A DNA stretch of 64,000 bases from Mobula hypostoma (taxonomy: Eukaryota): contig NC_086097.1 of NCBI RefSeq assembly GCF_963921235.1, forward strand, positions 103,542,001-103,606,000, written 5' to 3'. Each line of letters opens with the position of its first letter. Positions within the stretch are counted from its first letter, which is position 1. Both the position numbers and the translations under genes were made by a program. This document shows positions 37,821-56,200 of the stretch, piece by piece. The notes under the pieces were generated by a model. It had not been told where the DNA came from. It made no database searches and worked only from the letters and a program-made list of their open reading frames with translations.

Positions 37821-39486
37821 TTATTTAGGGTTCAATGACTTGGCTCCATTATCCATTAAGTATCAATGCTTGCTCATTATTACAATGTACTATTAAGTGA
37901 GTTCATAGAAAAGTTGCAATCTCTTCAAAGAATCATTACAGTATTGACTTAGTTATGATAACCCAACTGTCATGTGTCCATATTTGCAGCTCCTCAGGCA
38001 TTAAAATAACACAACCCATGCCACAGGATCTGAACAACGTTCTGCCCCAGGCTAAAGAGTGGTACAGTCACATTTGCACCATTCATCACAACCAAAAGAG
38101 AATTTATTTAGTCCTCTTTATTTTTTCAAATCCTCCAACATCAACCAAGCGGCATTCACCAATAACAAAAGCTAAAGTGGACCAGCCACATAAATACTGT
38201 GGCTACAAGAGCAGGTGCATATTCTGGGACAAATGGAACATTTAGAGTGACAAAGTCTGAAGTCAAAAGAAGAATGGAATCGCTACTCTCCATTTGATCA
38301 GCTGAGTGCAGTTCCAACAACACATGAAGATCAACACCATCCCACATTAAAAATCCACTAGATTAGCACCACATCCAATCAACCACTCAAACATTTTCTC
38401 CTTTCACCCCAGTCCATGGTGGTTACACTGTGTGTCATCTACTGGAAGCTCTGTAGAAACCTAACAAGGCTGTCTCTAAACTTTTATTCTCTATTACCCA
38501 GAAAGGCAGAAAAACAAATCAGCATCTACATGTTTTGCCCCACCCCACCCCAGCCAGCCAACTACACCCCACTCCCTTCCCTCATCAAGACCACTGCTTA
38601 TGGCTGAGCCTTTGTTGTCATGGAGTGAATTGCTGCAACAGTAGGGTAGTAGGAATTTAAAAACAGGATCTGAAGTGGTTGGACAAGGCAGTAAGTGGTA
38701 CATGCTGGGTGGGCCAGAGATGGTCACATTAAATTAATCATTTTAAAATGACGACTTACAAACTAAATAAATCAGATAGTTGAGGGGCAATTCCTCTCAC
38801 ATCACTCTATATTTGAAAATAAAAGGAGGGTAGGGAATAAAATACTACTATTCAGCTTAATAAGCTTTCCTTGCTAACTGCATTGTCCCACTACACTTAT
38901 GGCAGAATAAATACTGTTACTGATCCAGACTCTTCTGATAAAAGTCATCAAGCTGAAATGTTAACTTGCTTTCCCTTTTTTAAAAATCTTTACCCTGTCT
39001 CTTCTGTTCAGTTTTTCCAGCATTTTCTGTTTGATTTCAAATCCACCGAAACTAGATCCTGATCAGGAGCTGGGATGCCAGTGTTCCAACTTCCTAACCT
39101 ACTCCATTCTCCATTGGCGCATTATTCATGGATTCCATGATCAAGTCCTTTAAAGATACTTCTCCTGCAAAAAAGATTGAGTGCAGATTTTCCTTTGAAT
39201 TCTCAGGAAGTTCAAGGCTGTATATTCTTTTGAACAAAATGCCTCCAAATTCCAAATAATAGAATGATAGACCAACAATCTGGGTAGTACTCTACAGATC
39301 ATACAACATCTGTGGCTAGAAAGGAACTGTTGACATTTTTGGTCCAAACCCTGCATCAGGACATGCAGCCCTGCATCCATCCATGGAATGGTAGAGACCT
39401 GTCTTACTCCAAATTATAAGGAAATATTAGGCAGCTACACCATCAATTGTAAAGCACATTTATTAATTAGTGTATTGGGAACTTAC

Positions 39487-40684: not shown

Positions 40685-41214
40685 CTGAGATAATGATAAC
40701 AATTGTTGGTGTAAAAGGTGTGCTCTCAGTTGTTCTTCACCTCTCACAAGCTTATTGCGAGGTACAGACTAACACATGAAACCTGAGCAGCTGTGGATAC
40801 AAAATCCCGTCATCACAGCAAGGATACTCTCCATAAATATACTGGATAGAAGAGACACAAACACATCTGGCAGCTCAAAACTGGGCACTGAAGAGGCTGT
40901 AGATTATCCTTATTAGCAGGAAAGGTTTAGCTCCACAATTCTTAATTTTATGGCCTGCTACATCCTTACCCAACCATAATACAAGCAGGGAACCAACCCT
41001 GGTTCAGTGAGGATTTTAGAAGGACATATTGGGAGCAGATGTAGATACACCTACAAATAATGAGGGTCCAGCCTGGTGAAACTGTTACTGTTTCATTGTC
41101 AAACTGATACATCGCCAGACAGCTAAAACAGCATGTAATACATAAAATTATATCTCAACCAATGGATCAGACAGAAGTTTTACAGTCTTACCAAATATTG
41201 TTGCAAATAATGAA

Positions 41215-42160
41215 TCATTAAACAGCCAAGTGGAGTAGGTAACTCTAAGAATATCCCCAACCCCAATGGAGGGACCTAGCACAGGAGTAGTAGAGCCAAG
41301 GCTGACGCATATGCTACTGTATGCGGAACTTTCTCAGCTTCCTTCTGAGATCTCCATCATCACAGCAGCCAGTCTTCTACCAATTTGCTTATGATACCAA
41401 GAAGTGGTTGACAGCACTGAGTTATAGCAGAAGGCTATGAGACGAGACAACATCCCAGCAATAGGGGCAATCTGTGCTTCAGAATTAGCTGCAACCACAG
41501 TCAAGTTATTTCAGTGCAGTTACCACCGACAGCTGCACTCAACTGTTCACACAAAGCAGGAGAAATCCAATCTAGCTAATTATCAACATCAGCAAAGCGA
41601 TGGAAGGCATCAGCTTTCTAATAACAGTATCACCAGACTCAAACATGGACTGAAGTGCTGAGTTCCAAAGAGTAAATGAGGGTGACTGCCCTTGATGTCA
41701 AAGCAGGATTTGACTGAGTGAGGCTTCAAAGCACCTGATAAAACTGTGGTGAATAGATAGCCAAGTAAAAACAGTTCAGTGGTTGGAGTCACACCTCACA
41801 CAAGAGATGATAATTCACCTCTCCATCGATCATCCTAGCCCCAAGATATAACTGCAGGGTAACTGAGTGTCCTTCTCGCATCTTTCTCTGCTTCATCTCC
41901 TCCTCCTTACTATTCTGTGATGAGGAGGAGATATCAGCTGATAATTGCAACATGCTCAATTCCATTTGCAATACTCAGCTTATCAAACTGCCATTATCTG
42001 CATGCAGCAAAACCTAAAAAACATTCAGACATGAGCTGAGAAGGGGCAAGTAATGAAGTGCCAGGCAAGGACCACCTCCAACAAAAGACAACTTAACAAT
42101 GACATTCAATAGCATTATCATTGCTGAGATTTCCACCATCAACACCCTAAGGCACACTAG
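41215..42160 (+). mobile_element. Degenerate fragment of the same LINE family as 47499-53753
   Basis: CASELA...KLFQCSY is collinear with CAPELA..KLFQYSY at 50643-50852. Confidence 0.7.
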
Positions 42161-46493: not shown

Positions 46494-48784
46494 TATATAT
46501 ATTTCTTATTGTAACTTAGTTTTAATTACGGATTTCAATACACTGCTGCTGCAAAACAACACATTTTACGACATATGCCAGTGATACTAAACCTGATTCT
46601 GATGACTGTTCTGGCTCCCAGTAGAGCGAGATGACCTTGCCAATTCTGAACTATCCATGCTCATTGCTTACTATTTGCTGGATTCACCAGCACTTCTCCA
46701 TCTGTTCTTTAAAACATGGATCTCCCTTCTGCAGCTTGGCCTGCAGGTTGTTTAACCCCTCTTGAGGGATAATGGCATTTCTTTGCACTTGCAATTACTA
46801 AGTTCCTGGATCTTCTAGTTGCTTCTCATTGTGTTTCTTGGTAACAACAAACCAAGAAACTCATTGCAGGTGCTAAATAGAGACATGTGGCACAGAAGTA
46901 GGTCCTCCAGCCCACCATGTCCATGCTGACCCTCAAATACTATCAATCGTAATCCCACTTACCGATACTTGGTGCACATCTTTCTGAGTGTTGGCATTCA
47001 ATTGCTCATTTAAAAGCTTCTGAAATGTTGTGATCTGTTCCTGGTATCAACTCAGGCAGTGTGTTTAAGAAAACAAATTAATGTTGAACTTCTGGACATA
47101 CCAAATACTGCTGCTCTTGTTGGCTAAGTGTCACCAGGAAATTTTAATACCAAAATGACATGTCTCTGGTTATTCACAACAGTTGCCTGTATATTACTGC
47201 TCTGAAGAAAATTTGATGCTTTGCAAAATACAGACTTTACACTCAGTTCCTGTACCAGTACCAGTAATTCAGCAAGAAATCCTGAACACACATTTTAGAA
47301 AGTTTAGTCAGTTGTAATTGAACAAAAGCATTCCTTCTGAGCAGTGTTTTGGGGGGCGGGGGATGTGGGGAGGTTATGATCAGGGATGCAGTGTCCTGGC
47401 TTTATTGTGATTGCTTCAATCTGAAAATCCTGAGTAAGGTTTTGCGAATAGCATTCACACTTAATGTGCTGGAACTAATACATTGGAGAACAAAGATCTG
47501 GCGCAGTGGTAATTACCACTGGATTAATAATCCAGAGACCTAATTATAAATTGGAGATGTGAGTTTGAATCCCACCATGCCAGATGGTGAATTTGAAGTC
47601 AATGAAAATATCATGATGATCATGAAACCATGATGGTCCTTTAGGAGAGGAATCTGCCATCCTTTCCTGGTCTGGCCTATACGTGACTCCGAAATGCCCT
47701 CTTAAATGGCCTATCAAGCCATTCAGTTGTATCCAACTGCTAAAAAAAAATAATAAGGAATGAACTTGGACAGACAACCTGGCATCAACCTAGGCACTGG
47801 AACCGACAACAGCAAACCAGCCCTGTCGAATCTGCAAAGTCCTCCTTACTAACATCTGGGACTTGTGACAAAGGTGGGACAGCTGAATCATAGACTAGTC
47901 AAGCAACAGCCTGACATAGTTGTACTGACAGAATTACACCTTACAGTTCACATTCCGGACTCCACCATCACCATCCCTGGGTATGTACTGTCTCACCGGC
48001 AGGACAGACCTAGCAGAGGTGGTGGTTCAGTGGTATAGAGTAGAGAGAGAGTTGCCCTGGCAACTCTCAATGACTCTGGACCCCATGAAGTCTCATGGCT
48101 CCAGGTTAAACATGGACAAGGAAACCTCCTGCTCATTTACCGCGCACCGTCCTCCCTCAGCTGATGAATCAGTATTTCTCCATGTGGAGCAGCTCTTGGA
48201 GGAGGCTTTGAGGGTGGCAAGGGCACAGAATGTACTCTGGGTGGAAGCTTCAATGTCCACCACCAAGAGTGGCTTGGTAGTACCACTACAGGCCGAGCTG
48301 ATTGGGTCCTAGTTACTAGACTGGGACTACAGCAGGCGGTGAGGGAACCAAGAGGGAAAAACACACTTGACTCATTCTCACCAACCTGCCTGCCGTGGAA
48401 ACATCTGTCCATGACAGCATTGGTAGAAGTGACCACTACACAGAACTTGTGGAGACTAAATCCTGTCTCCACACTGAAGAAACCCGCCACCGCATTGTGT
48501 AGCACTACCACTGTGAAAAATGGGATAGAATTCGAACAAATCCAGCAGCCCAAGACTGGGCATCTATGAGGTGCTGTGGGCCATCAGCAGCAGCAGAATT
48601 GTACTCAACTACAATCTGTAACCTCATTGCCCGGCATATCCCCCCACTCTAACATCACCACCAGGCCAGGGGATCAACCCTGGTTCAATGAAGAGTGCAG
48701 GAGGGCACGCTGAGAACAACACCAGGCATGCCTCAATATGAGAAGTCATCCCGGTGAAGCCACAATACAGGACTACTTGCATGC

Positions 48785-50284
48785 TGTTAGCCAGAAAGAA
48801 TGACAATTTACAAATCAGTGAATTCAAATGAATCAAGGACAGTGGAAGCAGACAGACTAATTGGCTTTGTTCTTGCTGCATGCTTGGGGATGGAGACTGC
48901 CATTTTGTGAGCCTGACATGCTGGGCTTGATCAATGTTTCAAAGAAGACACAATGATACTTCAGGTAATCTGCTAGACTGGAGATAATTTCCGAATAAGT
49001 TGTTATTTGTGAGATGTTCTTTGTTTGGCTATAACATGCAGGCTTGTGAATGTTGGGGTTGATGCCTGCCTAGAGTGATTCAAGCTCATTGCTGATTGAG
49101 AACAAAGAGCCGTAAATTATCGACTGTCACTTGATGGGAAGGGGGCAATAAATGGATGCTGGCTTGGAGCAAAGCCAATAACAAGGTATTAAAGGACAGA
49201 CACATGACCTGTGGCCAATGACACTGGAATGCGATATTCAAATTGATAAGGAATGAATATAAAAGTAGATGCTTCGTGCCTGCTGGCAACGGTAACTTCA
49301 AAGAATAACCATCGCAGATACAAGTGTGAGCAACCCTGCATGAAACACGTGGCAAATGAATTGAGACAACAAAGAACGCCTGGCCAGTGTAGACTCCTTT
49401 GCCTGGGTAATACCTTTGCTATTTTTTTAGATTATGACGACATTCAGTCTTCGTTTATTGTCATTTAGAAATGCATGCATTAAGAATGATACAAGGTTCC
49501 TCCAGAGTGATATCACAGAAACACAAGACAGACCAAGACTAAAACTGACAAAAACCACATAATTATAACATATAGTTATAACAGTGCAAAGCAATACCGT
49601 AATTTGATAAAAGCAGACCATGGGCACGGTAAAATAAACGTCTCAAAGTCCCAAAAGTCCCAACATCTCACGCAGACGGTAGAAGGGAGAAAATCTCCCT
49701 GCCATGAGCCTCCAGCGCCACAAACTTGCTGATGCAGCATCCTGGAAGCACCCGACCACAGTCCGACTGAGACCGTCCGAAAACTTAGAGCCTCCAACCA
49801 GCCCTCCGACACCGAGCACCGAGCACCATCTCTGCCGAGCGCTTTGACCCTGCCCTGGCTGCCGAGCAAAAAGCAAAGCCAAGGATTCGGGGCCTTCCCC
49901 TCCGGAGATTTCGGATCGCACAGTAGTGGTGGCAGCGAAACAGGTATTTCAGAAGTTTCACCAGATGTTCCTCTGTGCTCTCACGTCTGCCTCCATCAAA
50001 TCAGAATTGTGCACGGCCTCCTACTTAACAAATAACAGGTATTCGTCACAGGAGAGGCCACGCGCACTGTGTCATGCCGCCATCTTCTCCTCCTCCTTCT
50101 TTTCTCATTCTCCTCATTCTTTCTCTATTCAGGAGAGTCAAGGATACTTAGTGGGTGTGCACACAAAGTATCTACTGTATGAATTCACATACTTGTTGGT
50201 TTAAAAAGTAAAGGTACTTGTCAGTAAATACAGATCTCTCTGTGCCTCACTAATCATCGTTATAGGTAGTATTTTTTTTTTACA
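48785..50284. mobile_element. Solo LTR-like insertion, itself interrupted
   Basis: TGT...ACA termini, exact 4-bp TSD ATGC; the host LINE rejoins across it. Confidence 0.75.
49428..50097 (-). mobile_element. Non-autonomous Rex1/Babar-type element (5' UTR-like plus 3' UTR-like, no RT)
   Basis: Starts GGAGAAGATGGCGG (cf. AAGATGGCG at the 5' end of the element ending at 60750); ends AAATGACAATAAA plus a short tail; GC/CpG-rich. Confidence 0.65.
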
Positions 50285-51652
50285 ATGCCAAACACCATAA
50301 GCAGCAAGTAACAGACAGAGCTAAGTGGTCCCACAACCAATGGATCAGATCTAAGCTCTGTAGTCCTGCCACATCCAGCCACAAATGGTGGTGGACAATC
50401 AAACAACTCACTGGAGAAGGCTCACAAATATCCCCACCCTCAATGACAGAGGAGCCCAGCACACTTGTGCAAAAGATAAGGCTGAGGCATTTGCAACAAT
50501 CTTCAATCAGAAGCGACGAGTAGATGATCCAGCTTGGCCTCCTCCAGAAGTCCCCAACATCCCAGATGTCAGTATGCAGCCAATCTGACTCACTCCATGT
50601 GATACCAAGAAACAGCTGAAAGTACTGGATACTGCCAAAGCTATGGGCCCAAACAAAATCCCAGCAATGGTTCTGAAGGCTTGTGCTCCAGAACTTGCCA
50701 CACTAGCCAAGCTGTTCCAGTACAGCTACAACACCAGCATCTACCCAGCAATGTGGAAAATTGCCCAGGTATGTCCTGGACACAAGAAACAGGACAGGTC
50801 CAACCCAGCAAATACCACCTTATCAGCCTACTCTCAATCATCAGCAAAGTAAAGGAAGGGGTCATCAACAGTGTTATCATGCAGCAACAACCTGCTTACT
50901 GATGCCCAGTTTGGGTTCCATCAAGGCCACTCAGCTCCTGGCCTCATCACCTCCTCGGCTCAAACATGGACCAAAGAGCTATATACCAGAGGTGAGGTGA
51001 GCTGAGAGTGATAGACCTCGACATCAAGGCACCATTTGACTGAGTAGGGCATCAAGGTGTCCTAGTTAAAATGGAGTCAATGGGAATTAGGGGGAAACCC
51101 TCCACTGGTTGGAATCATACCTGACACAAAGGAAGATGGTTGTGGTGGTTGGAGGTCAATCATCTCATCCTCAAGACATCACTGTAGGAGTTCCTCGAGG
51201 AAGTATCCTAGGACCAACCATCTTTACCTGCTTCATCAATGACCTCCATAAGGTCAGAAGTGGGGATGTTTGCAGATGACTGCACAATGTTCTGCACCAT
51301 TTGTGACTCCTCAGATAGTGAAGCAGCTCATACCCAAATGCAGCAGGACCTGGACAATATCCAGTCTTGGGCTGACAAGTGGCAAGTAACATTCCAGCCA
51401 TACAAGTGCCAGGCAATGACCATCTCCAACGAGAGAGGCTCTAACCATCGTCCCTTAACATTCAGTGGCATCACCATTATTGAATCCCGTTCAATCAACA
51501 TCCTGAGGGTTACCATTGACAGGAAACTGAACTGGTCTAGCCATATAAACACCGTGGCCACCAGAGCAGGTCAAAGGCTAGGAAACCTGCGGCGCGCAAC
51601 TCACCTCTTGACTCCCCAAAGCCTGTCCACTACCTACAAAGCTCAAGTCAGG

Positions 51653-53248
51653 CTCAAATACCCCTTCCCCACACGAAACCACCACGGTGGGCTTCACAGC
51701 TGAACAGGTGAGAAGACAGCTGAAACATCTCAACCCAAGCATGGCTGCAGGACTGGGTGCTGTTAGTACCAGGGTGCTCAAAGCCTGTGCCCTCAGCTAT
51801 GTGGAGTACTGTGCCATGTCTTCAACCTGAGCCTCCAGCTCCGGAGGGTTCCTGTGCTGTGAAAGACGCCCTGCCTCGTCCCTGTGCCGAAGACGCCGCG
51901 TCCCAGCGGCCTCAATGACTACAGACCGGTGTCATTGACCTCCCACATCATGAAGACCCTGGAGAGACTTGTTCTGGAGCTGCTCCGGCCTATGGTCAGG
52001 CGACACTTAGATCCCCTCTAGTTTGCCTACCAGCCCCGACTAGGAGTTGAAGATGCCATCGTCTACCTGCTGAACCGTGTCTATGCCCACCTGGACAAGC
52101 CAGCGAGCTCTGTGAGGGTCATGTTTTTTGACTTCTCCAGTGCGTTCAACACCATCCGCCCTGCTCTGCTGGGGGAGAAGCTGACAGTGACGCAGGTGGA
52201 TGCTTTCCTGGTGTCATGGATTCTTGATTACCTAACTGGCAGATCACAGTATGTGTGCTTGCAACACTGTGTGTCCAACAGAGTGATCAGCAGCACTGGG
52301 GCTCCACAGGGGACTGTCTTGTCTCCCTTTCTCTTCACCATTTACACCTCGGACTTCAACTACTGCACAGAGTCTTGTCATCTTCAGAAGTTTTCTGATG
52401 ATTCTGCCATAGTTGGATGCATCAGCAGGGGAGATGAGGCTGAGTACCGGGCTACGGTAGGAAACTTTGTCACATGGTGTGAGCAGAATTATCTGCAGCT
52501 TAATGTGAAAAAGACTTAGGAGCTGGTGGTAGACCTGAGGAGAGCTAAGGTACCGGTGACCCCTGTTTCCATCCAGGGGGTCAGTGTGGACATGGTGGAG
52601 GATTACAAATACCTGGGGATACGAATTGACAATAAACTGGACTGGTCAAAGAACACTGAGGCTGTCTACAAGAAGGGTCAGAACCATCTCTATTTCCTGA
52701 GGAGACTGAGGTCCTTTAACATCTGTTGATCGATGCTGAGGATGTTCTACGAGTCTGTGGTGGCCAGTGCGATCATTTTTGCTGTTGTGTGCTGGGACAG
52801 CAGGCTGAGGGTAGCAGTCACCAACAGAATCAACAAATTCATTCGTAAGGCCAGTGATGTTGTGGGGATGGAACTGGACTCTCTGATGGTGGTGTCTGAA
52901 AAGAGGATGCTGTCTAAGTTGCATGCCATCTTGGACAATGTCTCCCATCCACTACATAATGTACTGGTTGGGTACAGGAGTACATTCAGCCAGAGACTCA
53001 TTCCACCGAGATGCAACACAGAGCGTCATAGGATGTCATTCCTGCCTGCGGCCATCAAACGTTACAACTCCTCCCTTGGAGGGTCAGACACCCTGAGCCA
53101 ATAGGCTGGTCCTGGACTTATTTCCTGGCATAATTTACATATTACTGTTTAATTATTTATGGTTTTATTACTATTTAATTATTTATGGTGCAACTGTAAC
53201 GAAAACCAATTTCCCCCGGGATCAATAAAGTATGACTATGACTCTGAA
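51653..53248 (+). mobile_element. 5'-truncated Rex1-like LINE
   Basis: MFFDFSSAFNTI, GAPQGTVLSPFLF, QKFSDD, YKYLG; 3' end GGGATCAATAAAGTATGACTATGACT. Confidence 0.92.
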
Positions 53249-56200
53249 GAGTGAAATGGAATACTCGCACTCTCCTGGATAAGTGCAGCTCCATCAACAC
53301 TCAAGAAGCTTGACACCATCTAGTACAAGGCAGCCCACTTGATTTGTACCCCTTCCACAAGCATCCAATCCCTCCACCATCAACGAACAATTGCAGCAGT
53401 GTGTACCAGCTACAAGATGCACTGTAACAACACAGCAAAGTTTTCAAGGCAGCATCTTCCAGACCCACAACCACTACTGAGAAGAAGGATGAGAACAACA
53501 GATACCTGGGAACACCACCACTTGGAAATCCCCCTCCAAGTCTCTCATCCTGACTTGGAGACATATCACTGTTCCTTCATTGTCACTGGGTCAAAATCAT
53601 GGAATTCCCTCCCTAACAGCACTGTGGGTGTACCTACACCTCAGGAACTACAGCGGTTCAAGGCGGCAGTTCATCACCACCTTCTCAAGGGCATCTAGGG
53701 ATGGGCAATAAACACTGGCTTAGCTGCCAATGTCCCGTAAATGAATATTAAAATAATCTTTGGCTAGTAAGGTGTAGGGTGTCAGACTGTGGCTCCAGCT
53801 ATTGCACTGCAGCAAGCAGCCCAGCAGTTCCTAAGGTACACGAAAGATAGAAAAATCTTAAGTAAACAAACATCTCTGAGAGCTGCTGATGTGAATATTT
53901 ACAATTTGAGATTGCAACAGAGAGAGGGGTAACAGAGATTGCAGCTTCAATGCAATTTCTTGCCTTTACACCCTTATTGCTTTCCAGATGCCCACATTCC
54001 ACAGCCATGGCGGACACTGACTGTGAGGTGGGAATGCCAAACTGAAGTCTGGGACAGAATTATCAGTGCACAGTAAAACAGAAGTCAGAAAGTCGAGCCC
54101 AGACAAATGATTTTTCTAAAGCTGCAAGGGAAACAAATGAATAGATAATACAAACATAAAAATAATCGATAATAAAGAAATGCATGTTAAACTTCAGTTT
54201 GCTTCCATTTTACTATAATCTATTACCATACCTATGCTCAGAAACTAAATACACATATTGCTAGGAAACTTAGGTGCTGACTTACTGAAAGCAGGAGAGG
54301 CATGACATGGCGTAAGGAAGTCAATAGGGCAAAGAGGGGGCCATGAAATATCATTGCTGGACAAGATTAAGGAAGATTTCTATGTATTTTTTAAAATTAT
54401 AGTAGAGGCAAAAGGATAACTAGGAAGCAAGTGAGAGGCACAAATGGCAGTCTGTGTTGAGCTAAAAGATGTAGTCGTAATTTTAAATGATATCTTTCAT
54501 CTCCACTCATGGAGGAAAAGGATCTGAGGTTGGAGAACTCAGGGAGTGAAATTTTTGAACAAGTTATCACTAAAAGGAGGTATCAGATGTCTTATTGGGC
54601 TTAAAGATAAATAAATTCCAGAACCTTATAAGATGCAGCCCAGATGAGAGGAGAGGAGGGAAGGGAAGAGATGACTGGTAACCTGACAGACTGGCAGCTA
54701 TGTCCTGTATAGTGTAGAGTTTTTGAGTGTTATTGAAGTTGCACTCAACCAGATAAGTGGAGATCATTCTGTCACACTCCTGACTTGTGGCTTGGAGACA
54801 ATAGTTAGGATTTGAGGAGTGAAGAAGTGATGTTTTGCGGGCTGCTTACAAAACTACAAGATATTCTATACTTCTTCTGAGCTGCAATTGCTGCAATCTG
54901 CAGCCTGTAACTAACTTCTGAACTGTCTAAAGTTTAGACTCTAAATGAACTAGTGATTTTATGATCTCCTGAAGAATTCAGCAAACTTGACTCTCAGGAA
55001 CAGAGGAAAACAAACTGGTGTTCAGCCCCAATACTCTGTGCCTGCCAAGATCTCCCACCTGAGCCTGTCGCACCTGCCTGTGTTTGACCTGTCTTCCTCT
55101 CTTCTGCAGGAGTCCTGGGTTCCACACCACCTGGTTGTTCAGGAACAGTTGTTGCCCTATAGCCATTGGGCTCCTAGGCCAGCAAGGATGGCTGCACTCG
55201 TCTCACCGCTGAACTGACTACACAGTCACTTTTGGGGACTCTGTCCTGGTTATGTATGGATTTTCATAGATTCTATTATATTCCTTTATTTTCCTGTAGG
55301 TGCCTGCAAGAAAATGAATCCCAAGCTATACAAATTTTGAAAATAAATTTACTTTGAATATGAATGGTGAATTTTGAGATTATTAGTCCCTGACTTGCTC
55401 TTGTAACCACAGGTGAGGTGCCAGATGACTGGAAGACAGAAGTGATTTCTCTGTTGATGAATTATCAAATGGATAAACTGGGGAATTACAAGTCAGCAAG
55501 TCTCCTGACAGTGGGAGGAACATCATTGCCAAGATATCTTCATAAAGCGACATATTGAATTGCAGGAATTAATCAAAGGTAATCACCGTGACCTTGTGGG
55601 AATGTCCTGTCTGAAGACTATGACTGATTTTTTCCAGAGGTAACAAAATGACGAGAGTGGTGTAGTTTAATTTAAGGAATGTGGATTTCAGATGCTAAAT
55701 CAGCATTTAATTACACAACCCTTGTTACCCTTGAGAAGGTGGTGGTGATCAGCGTTGGAATTTTTACTCTCAAAGGATTTGAATGTGAATGCAGATGACA
55801 TGAAGATTAGCAGTGTTGTCCAGAGAGGGTAGCCTTAGGCTACCGCATGCTATAGATCAGTGAATAACATAGGCAGACGGATTTCAATCTTGATAAGAGT
55901 GAGATGATGTACTTTGGGAGGATTAGTGAGGCTTGAACATAAACAATGTATGGTGGGGTAGAAGGAATATTAAGGGACAAATGTAACTTGGCATAAGTGA
56001 TGCTGGCCTTCATTATCCAATGCAAAGAACACAAGAGGACCTCTGGAAAATGATGCTGGAGAGGTAGTACCGGGGGACAAGGGAGTGACAGACAAACTGA
56101 ATAGTATTTTGCATCAGTCTTCACTGTGGAAGACACTAACAGTATGCCGGAGGTTCAAGAGTGTCGGGGGAAAAGTGTGAGTGAAGTTGCCATTACTAGG

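Follow-up and report, generated by a model that had tools for sequence, protein, structure and literature searches.

A tRNA-headed Zenon-1 LINE in Mobula hypostoma and its possible transcription by RNA polymerase III

Zenon long interspersed elements (LINEs) have been described from sharks, rays, coelacanth and hagfish; they lack a first open reading frame (ORF1) in all phyla and end in poly(A) (PMC13343379, Genome Biol Evol 2026). Zenon-labelled DNA makes up 0.7 to 6.8% of seven shark and ray genomes versus 0.018% in chimaera, fractions that short derivatives may inflate, and elasmobranch Zenons are mostly 3.2 to 3.3 kb long, with five Zenon-1 consensuses of 3,244 to 3,314 nt (PMC13343379). 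CR1-Zenon-like LINEs are also mentioned in a whale shark preprint, and Zenon spawns internally deleted derivatives and mobilises tRNA-derived short interspersed elements (SINEs) in bivalves (PMC11481361). Here, a LINE with a tRNA-like head is described from a 64,000-nt stretch of Mobula hypostoma contig NC_086097.1 (positions 103,542,001 to 103,606,000; the whole stretch is referred to as the window). This element, called the host after the two insertions nested in it, is almost certainly a member of elasmobranch Zenon-1, a family of which the tRNA head is a constant component.

The family identity was read from the supplement of PMC13343379, where each consensus was compared over its 5'-most 400 nt. 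All seven elasmobranch Zenon consensuses, from five species (HypSab_, CarCar_, RhiTyp_ and ScyCan_Zenon-1, and SquAca_Zenon-1, -2 and -3), open with the head, body and A-rich linker of the host, and two of them run visibly into the start of the endonuclease. The stingray consensus HypSab_Zenon-1 matches at 147 of 163 columns over 47695-47855 (about 90%, by eye), and its head and body match too. Of the eight variant rows listed for this segment, seven shift the window toward the stingray consensus and the eighth corresponds to the white shark consensus. Besides this consensus identity, the host shares with Zenon-1 a single ORF for apurinic/apyrimidinic endonuclease (APE) and reverse transcriptase (RT), the lack of ORF1 and a length of about 3.2 to 3.3 kb. 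The longest insertions of five families measure 3,220 to 3,322 nt, near the lengths of the head-bearing consensuses (PMC13343379).

The junction between head and endonuclease was also followed in contigs from 4 of 24 listed runs, compared with 47350-48850 at 80% likeness; the depth sums obtained are not copy numbers. Contigs 26 and 27 of run X9 cross from the body into the endonuclease (47697-47983 with 38 differences and 47700-47931 with 34 differences); this run, only guessed to be RNA, carries a contig identical to the locus including its flank and says nothing on expression. Variant letters at linker positions 47734, 47766 and 47803 were carried by at least 100, 66 and 104 contigs in X10 and by at least 112, 76 and 112 in X17 (counted to 128), and lay up to 40 to 53 letters inside the contig ends. 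Depth in X1 was 485 in the linker bin versus 12.2 in the flank, and no loose end near 47725, as a short SINE form made of head, body and tail might leave, appeared among the 24 of 2,956 rows listed. An earlier sequence-only reading had proposed a once-autonomous, single-ORF LINE family with a SINE head, and is borne out by a junction that recurs in diverged contigs and in all seven consensuses. The junction is not unique to this locus, as diverged contigs bridge it and multiple copies of the linker occur in each of three organisms, and none of the seven published consensuses has a conventional 5' untranslated region (UTR) followed by ORF1. The same reading took the lack of ORF1 as unusual, which did not stand, Zenon and Rex1 being universally without ORF1 and chondrichthyan L2s lacking it too (PMC13343379). 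It had also remarked that the family may already be in repeat databases; the family is published as Zenon-1 in the supplement of PMC13343379 and is said there to be absent from repeat repositories.

The host spans 47493-53753 and comprises 3,161 nt once the two nested insertions are taken out. A tRNA-like head is followed by about 260 nt of body and linker, a single endonuclease-RT frame and a tail, without ORF1. Of the span first proposed (47499-53753), the end was kept and the start was moved to about 47493, six bases 5' of the A box. Between the 5' end and the V codon of the endonuclease lie 346 nt, leaving no room for ORF1, as had been claimed. The parts are the following.

47493-47585, plus strand: tRNA-derived head with acceptor-stem start, A box, anticodon-like arm, enlarged variable arm and B box (from boxes, Rfam, fold, consensuses and contig depth).
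47586-47729, plus strand: non-coding body, conserved in sharks and rays (from contig loose ends, consensuses and fold).
47730-47838, plus strand: A-rich linker with a conserved out-of-frame AUG and an Arg-rich extension in the endonuclease frame (from contigs, consensuses and frames read by eye).
47839-48784, plus strand: APE endonuclease and start of the linker region of the ORF, with stops and frameshifts (from tblastn and Pfam).
48785-50284, strand not assigned: nested insertion 1, similar to a solo long terminal repeat (from TG...CA ends, 4-bp duplication and contig depth).
50289-51652, plus strand: host ORF continued, linker and reverse transcriptase (from Pfam RVT_1 and tblastn).
51653-53249, plus strand: nested insertion 2, a 5'-truncated LINE unrelated to the host (from Pfam, RT identity and relative P0003).
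53250-53700, plus strand: C-terminal region of the host ORF (tblastn E 9e-14 with P0014 residues 818-958).
53701-53753, plus strand: short 3' UTR with a terminal A-rich tail (from sequence reading; a second copy of the tail lies at 55748-55694), without a significant fold in the host copy (z -0.06).

CpG in the host stands at 0.15 to 0.25 of expected and the reading frame is broken many times, which marks it as an old and dead copy. The host has no recognised target-site duplication (best candidate 6/8). The 3' end of this decayed copy is a short A-rich stretch with four A at 53750-53753. Other Zenon-like fragments, older or shorter and 67 to 79% identical to the host, lie in the window at 41156-42088 (plus), 38169-38216 (plus) and 55694-55748 (minus), and no match to the head was found near these three.

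Both boxes that had been claimed for the head were read in the sequence, the A box TGGCGCAGTGG at 47499-47509 and the B-box-like word AGTTTGAATCC at 47562-47572. The Rfam tRNA model gave a weak match to 47499-47583 (19.2 bits, gathering score 29, E 0.32), ARAGORN found no tRNA gene, and BLAST of the window against itself found no second head copy. The fold of the head beat 199 of 200 shuffles (z -2.83), and contig depth in X1 climbed from 12 to 528 over 47452-47553. The 5' ends of all seven elasmobranch consensuses sit 5 to 10 nt (median 7) 5' of the A-box T, that is, at tRNA +1. Six canonical B-box words matched 6 rows among the first 400 nt of about 1,003 CR1-group consensuses, all six being elasmobranch Zenons, and no tRNA head was seen by eye in the three hagfish and coelacanth Zenon consensus 5' ends. 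The lepidopteran Zenon-derived short internally deleted element (SIDE) Persaeus is described as without tRNA homology or a promoter for RNA polymerase III (Pol III) (PMC6740152). Because the hagfish and coelacanth Zenons and this SIDE lack it, the head was likely gained within the elasmobranch Zenon lineage. As in SINE2 elements, the host has a tRNA-related head with A and B boxes (its Rfam score lying below the gathering score); it is not short and non-coding, measuring 3.2 kb and holding an endonuclease-RT frame.

A tRNA-type Pol III promoter starts transcription at tRNA +1, short of the A box. Because the consensus 5' ends lie 5 to 10 nt before the A-box T, it is suggested that the copied RNA began at tRNA +1. 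On sequence grounds, it appears fairly probable that the Zenon-1 head served as an internal Pol III promoter for the whole element. An ancestral elasmobranch Zenon would have acquired the head through a template switch to a tRNA or tRNA-SINE RNA, a gain that we infer because the head is restricted to elasmobranch Zenons. Transcription by Pol III would have begun at tRNA +1 and continued through roughly 3.3 kb of sequence poor in T runs; the uncapped RNA would have been translated non-canonically, because no in-frame AUG precedes the endonuclease, and the Zenon protein would have copied its own RNA by target-primed reverse transcription, so that each full-length copy would carry its promoter. 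A wider proposal is made tentatively: elasmobranch Zenon-1 could be an autonomous SINE, a protein-coding retrotransposon transcribed over its whole length by Pol III from a tRNA promoter that it had captured. It would have been cleared of T-run terminators, translated independently of a cap and of an in-frame AUG, and retained from before the shark-ray split, and would be the parent, by internal deletion, of short tRNA-headed SINEs.

Transcripts made by Pol III have to do without T runs. The host copy has 1 run of four or more T (T4) in 3,155 nt, compared with 58 such runs in 17,002 nt of coding DNA from other LINEs of the window, ten times rarer in the host (binomial P 5e-4). The observed/expected ratio of T4 in the host was 0.24, below that of every one of the 90 related loci for which 2 kb or more could be aligned. 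By eye, TTTT was present in none of the seven elasmobranch consensus 5' ends versus all three of the hagfish and coelacanth Zenons. This T4 scarcity is supportive of Pol III reading, not decisive.

Several observations weigh against transcription by Pol III and its proposed consequences. The T4 scarcity of the host was not significant relative to dinucleotide shuffles (P 0.33) and was modest relative to base shuffles (P 0.03), with a Poisson value of 0.085 when the coding part is taken by itself. Runs of four A are low too (P 0.018, observed/expected 0.46), the T content of the host is just 0.21, which explains part of the scarcity, and the one T4 run at 53441 lies inside the coding region. 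One related LINE with a single ORF (L006:34-2892, 5' end missing), whose contig is assigned to a bacterial metagenome-assembled genome, is as T4-poor as the host, with 1 T4 run in 2,763 nt. In the seventh elasmobranch Zenon, that of the stingray and the closest to the host, the B box falls short by one base. Intact ORFs are rare, with 3 of 612, 1 of 1419 and 0 of 2313 (PMC13343379), and the family is thus largely dead. An uncapped RNA would also need a non-canonical route of translation.

The sequence ahead of the endonuclease bears on this route. The linker AUG at 47760 is kept in six of the seven published consensuses and opens a short frame that overlaps the endonuclease out of frame with it; AUG and V codon are 80 nt apart in the stingray (consensus read by eye) and 79 nt apart in the host copy. 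The endonuclease frame has an Arg-rich 5' extension without AUG; by eye, two of the differences between species within this extension are silent. Candidate mechanisms for the start of translation are initiation at a non-AUG codon, frameshifting and re-initiation. The short A run at 47742 recurs in published consensuses; it belongs to the family and is not the tail of a local SINE. The A-rich stretch 47742-47759 corresponds to one near nt 355-385 in the Zenon-1 consensus of hagfish, and may thus be a trait of the Zenon 5' UTR and not the relic of a SINE tail.

The body (47586-47735) folds with a z of -2.15. Two blocks of about 30 nt are missing from the host body, near 47635 and 47691, matching contig loose ends at 47651 and 47690 and the consensus text. 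Candidate origins of the body are an old Zenon 5' UTR and an unnamed SINE body. SacSINE1 with its Deu body was considered as the source of head and body and was rejected on the absence of Deu motifs: two Deu motifs (from EbuSINE2 and SINE2-2_CM text) had no match in the window at 3 mismatches, and the consensus bodies had only a 10-mer in common with Deu (by eye, with Deu taken from EbuSINE2 and SINE2-2_CM and not from SacSINE1 itself).

A different explanation, plausible but less probable, accepts the head as fixed in the family and has the coding RNA made by RNA polymerase II (Pol II), from a promoter in the body or by read-through, with the tRNA fold kept for RNA structure, 5' processing, translation or a short non-coding partner. 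LINE 5' regions have been described as Pol II promoters, and their 5' ends are often swapped (PMC5786205; bioRxiv 2022.11.04.512097); the conserved, folded body, the mixed T4 controls and the degenerate ray B box agree with it. The 5' ends at tRNA +1 in all seven consensuses, the canonical B-box words in six of them and the tenfold rarity of T4 relative to neighbouring LINEs argue against Pol II. Some Tx1-type LINEs (Keno/Tx1) insert into small-RNA genes. If Zenon inserted site-specifically into a tRNA-SINE in this way, the head would recur beside the endonuclease yet stay outside the element's own RNA; a repeated junction would likewise result, and no target-site duplication of the host was found. 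Such insertion is very improbable, given the same linker after the body in five species, the longest insertions close in length to the head-bearing consensuses, the three Zenon-like fragments without a head match nearby, and the lack of any recognised repeat 3' of 53753 (the 3' part of the putative target SINE is not known for comparison). That a SINE landed by chance beside a 5'-truncated LINE, both being abundant in these genomes and an A run being present at 47742, is refuted by the diverged contigs that bridge the junction, by the multicopy linker in three organisms and by the published consensuses with the same junction and A-rich stretch.

The coding region agrees with the LINE that was first outlined. 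The endonuclease motif K-V-L-L-T-N-I-W begins at 47836 with V at 47839, where the frame had been placed, and endonuclease matches by tblastn reached E 1e-19 to 1e-21 with P0014 and P0067 (Pfam PF14529 matched one endonuclease fragment at E 0.07). Full-length relatives aligned by tblastn covered the endonuclease at 47856-48746, the linker and RT at 50278-51652 and the C-terminus at 53267-53692, so that RT, C-terminus and tail do continue once both insertions are removed; Pfam RVT_1 matched at 51091-51276 and 51212-51700. The host linker and RT are 57 to 77% identical to close relatives, including whale shark P0001 and sawshark P0002, and the closest named proteins are from whale shark, sawshark and then lancelets. 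In a FastTree phylogeny of 154 rows, the host RT paired with P0016 (support 1.0) within a 37-row group (0.92) that includes lancelet proteins; the tree holds no named Zenon reference, and placement in the Zenon clade rests on PMC13343379. The host RT stood apart (0.99) from those of five other LINE copies of the window, presumably CR1, with RT identities of 22 to 30%. Neither the esterase ORF1 of canonical vertebrate CR1 nor clustering with esterase-bearing CR1 was found for the host.

Both nested insertions that had been noticed were confirmed, the first at exactly 48785-50284 and the second from 51653 to 53248/53249, with the host frame restarting at 53250. Insertion 1 has TG...CA ends and a 4-bp duplication ATGC at 48781-48784 and 50285-50288, and at least 79 X1 contigs end loose at 48785 (agreement 0.35). 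Depth in the last bin was 13,838 in X1 (organism A) and 0 in X10 and X17 (organisms C and D), so that this insertion is lineage-restricted; by eye, it holds in turn an element of about 670 nt on the minus strand (about 49427-50095). Insertion 2, which we take to be Rex1-like, matched RVT_1 (E 2.6e-14) and PF09004 (ALKBH8_N, E 1.9e-8), has a GACTAT-type tail and lies in the C-terminal region of the host RT; its own RT is only 21% identical to that of the host. The relative P0003 runs unbroken across the insertion 2 site.

Relatives were also sought beyond the window. Scans of metagenomes yielded 80 related LINE loci and scans of genomes 74; at the nucleotide level none was close to the host, apart from a 79-nt patch in L081. 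A protein homologue search with the RT piece gave none among 90 candidates, exact endonuclease-start patterns had no match in viral and genome contigs, and a shark-like RT alignment gave 0 of 43 in genome contigs; a viral scan gave five weak matches (25 to 27%), which were not used, and a PDB search gave L1 and R2 proteins only. Relaxed ARAGORN on the 154 related loci gave scattered matches, with upstream coding-strand ones in L097 and L008; these had no Rfam support among 14 chosen loci, a control too insensitive for a head as decayed as that of the host. The match in L097 (133-223) lies in a GC-rich structured leader 5' of a 978-codon LINE frame with 10 T4 runs, on a 3,364-nt metagenome contig. 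The 74 genome loci (L006-L079) that match the LINE query lie in prokaryotic genome bins; many hold an almost complete endonuclease-RT frame, a sign that these bins are contaminated with host or eukaryotic sequence.

In the textbook division, Pol II serves coding LINEs and Pol III serves non-coding SINEs. If Zenon-1 was read by Pol III, a family that takes up as much as about 7% of shark genomes would represent a natural messenger RNA made by Pol III, and the question of cap-independent and AUG-independent translation would be raised. Repeat annotation would split its copies into SINE and LINE, or count SINEs as Zenon. The Zenon family itself and its absent ORF1, normal for Zenon, Rex1 and several L2 lineages, are already known. 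The main text of PMC13343379 contains the word tRNA 0 times and SINE once, leaving the head and a Pol III reading unremarked, and no description of a tRNA-headed Zenon was found in the literature searched (subscription journals, Repbase and Dfam being outside its scope). The promoter architecture of elasmobranch Zenon is apparently undescribed.

Compared with elasmobranch Zenon-1, the host has the same 5' sequence, length and single APE-RT ORF without ORF1, and no structural difference. Invertebrate, hagfish and coelacanth Zenons and Persaeus resemble it in the single endonuclease-RT ORF, the lack of ORF1 and the A-rich 3' end; the hagfish and coelacanth Zenons and Persaeus differ in that a tRNA head or Pol III boxes were not seen (three of three consensus 5' ends) or are not reported (PMC6740152). 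The Deu-SINEs SacSINE1 and LmeSINE1 (PMC5499810) are, like the host, tRNA-headed, chondrichthyan and abundant, but carry a Deu domain, motifs of which were absent from the host when tested, and an L2-type tail. RTE-1_DAn and relatives, LINEs with tRNA-like sequence noted in a passing remark (PMC5786205), are a precedent from another clade, RTE; the name RTE-1_DAn was absent from the supplement searched. According to PMC5786205, the only LINE 5' parts found in SINE bodies were those of RTE and Vingi, and how tRNA heads and LINE sequence are joined is an open question of SINE origin, for which Zenon-1 offers a concrete intermediate. Like the host, Bov-tA, AfroSINE and CoeSINE4 couple a tRNA head with sequence derived from a LINE, an arrangement ascribed to template switching (PMC5786205); these three elements are short and non-coding, whereas in the host the head is followed by a whole coding frame.

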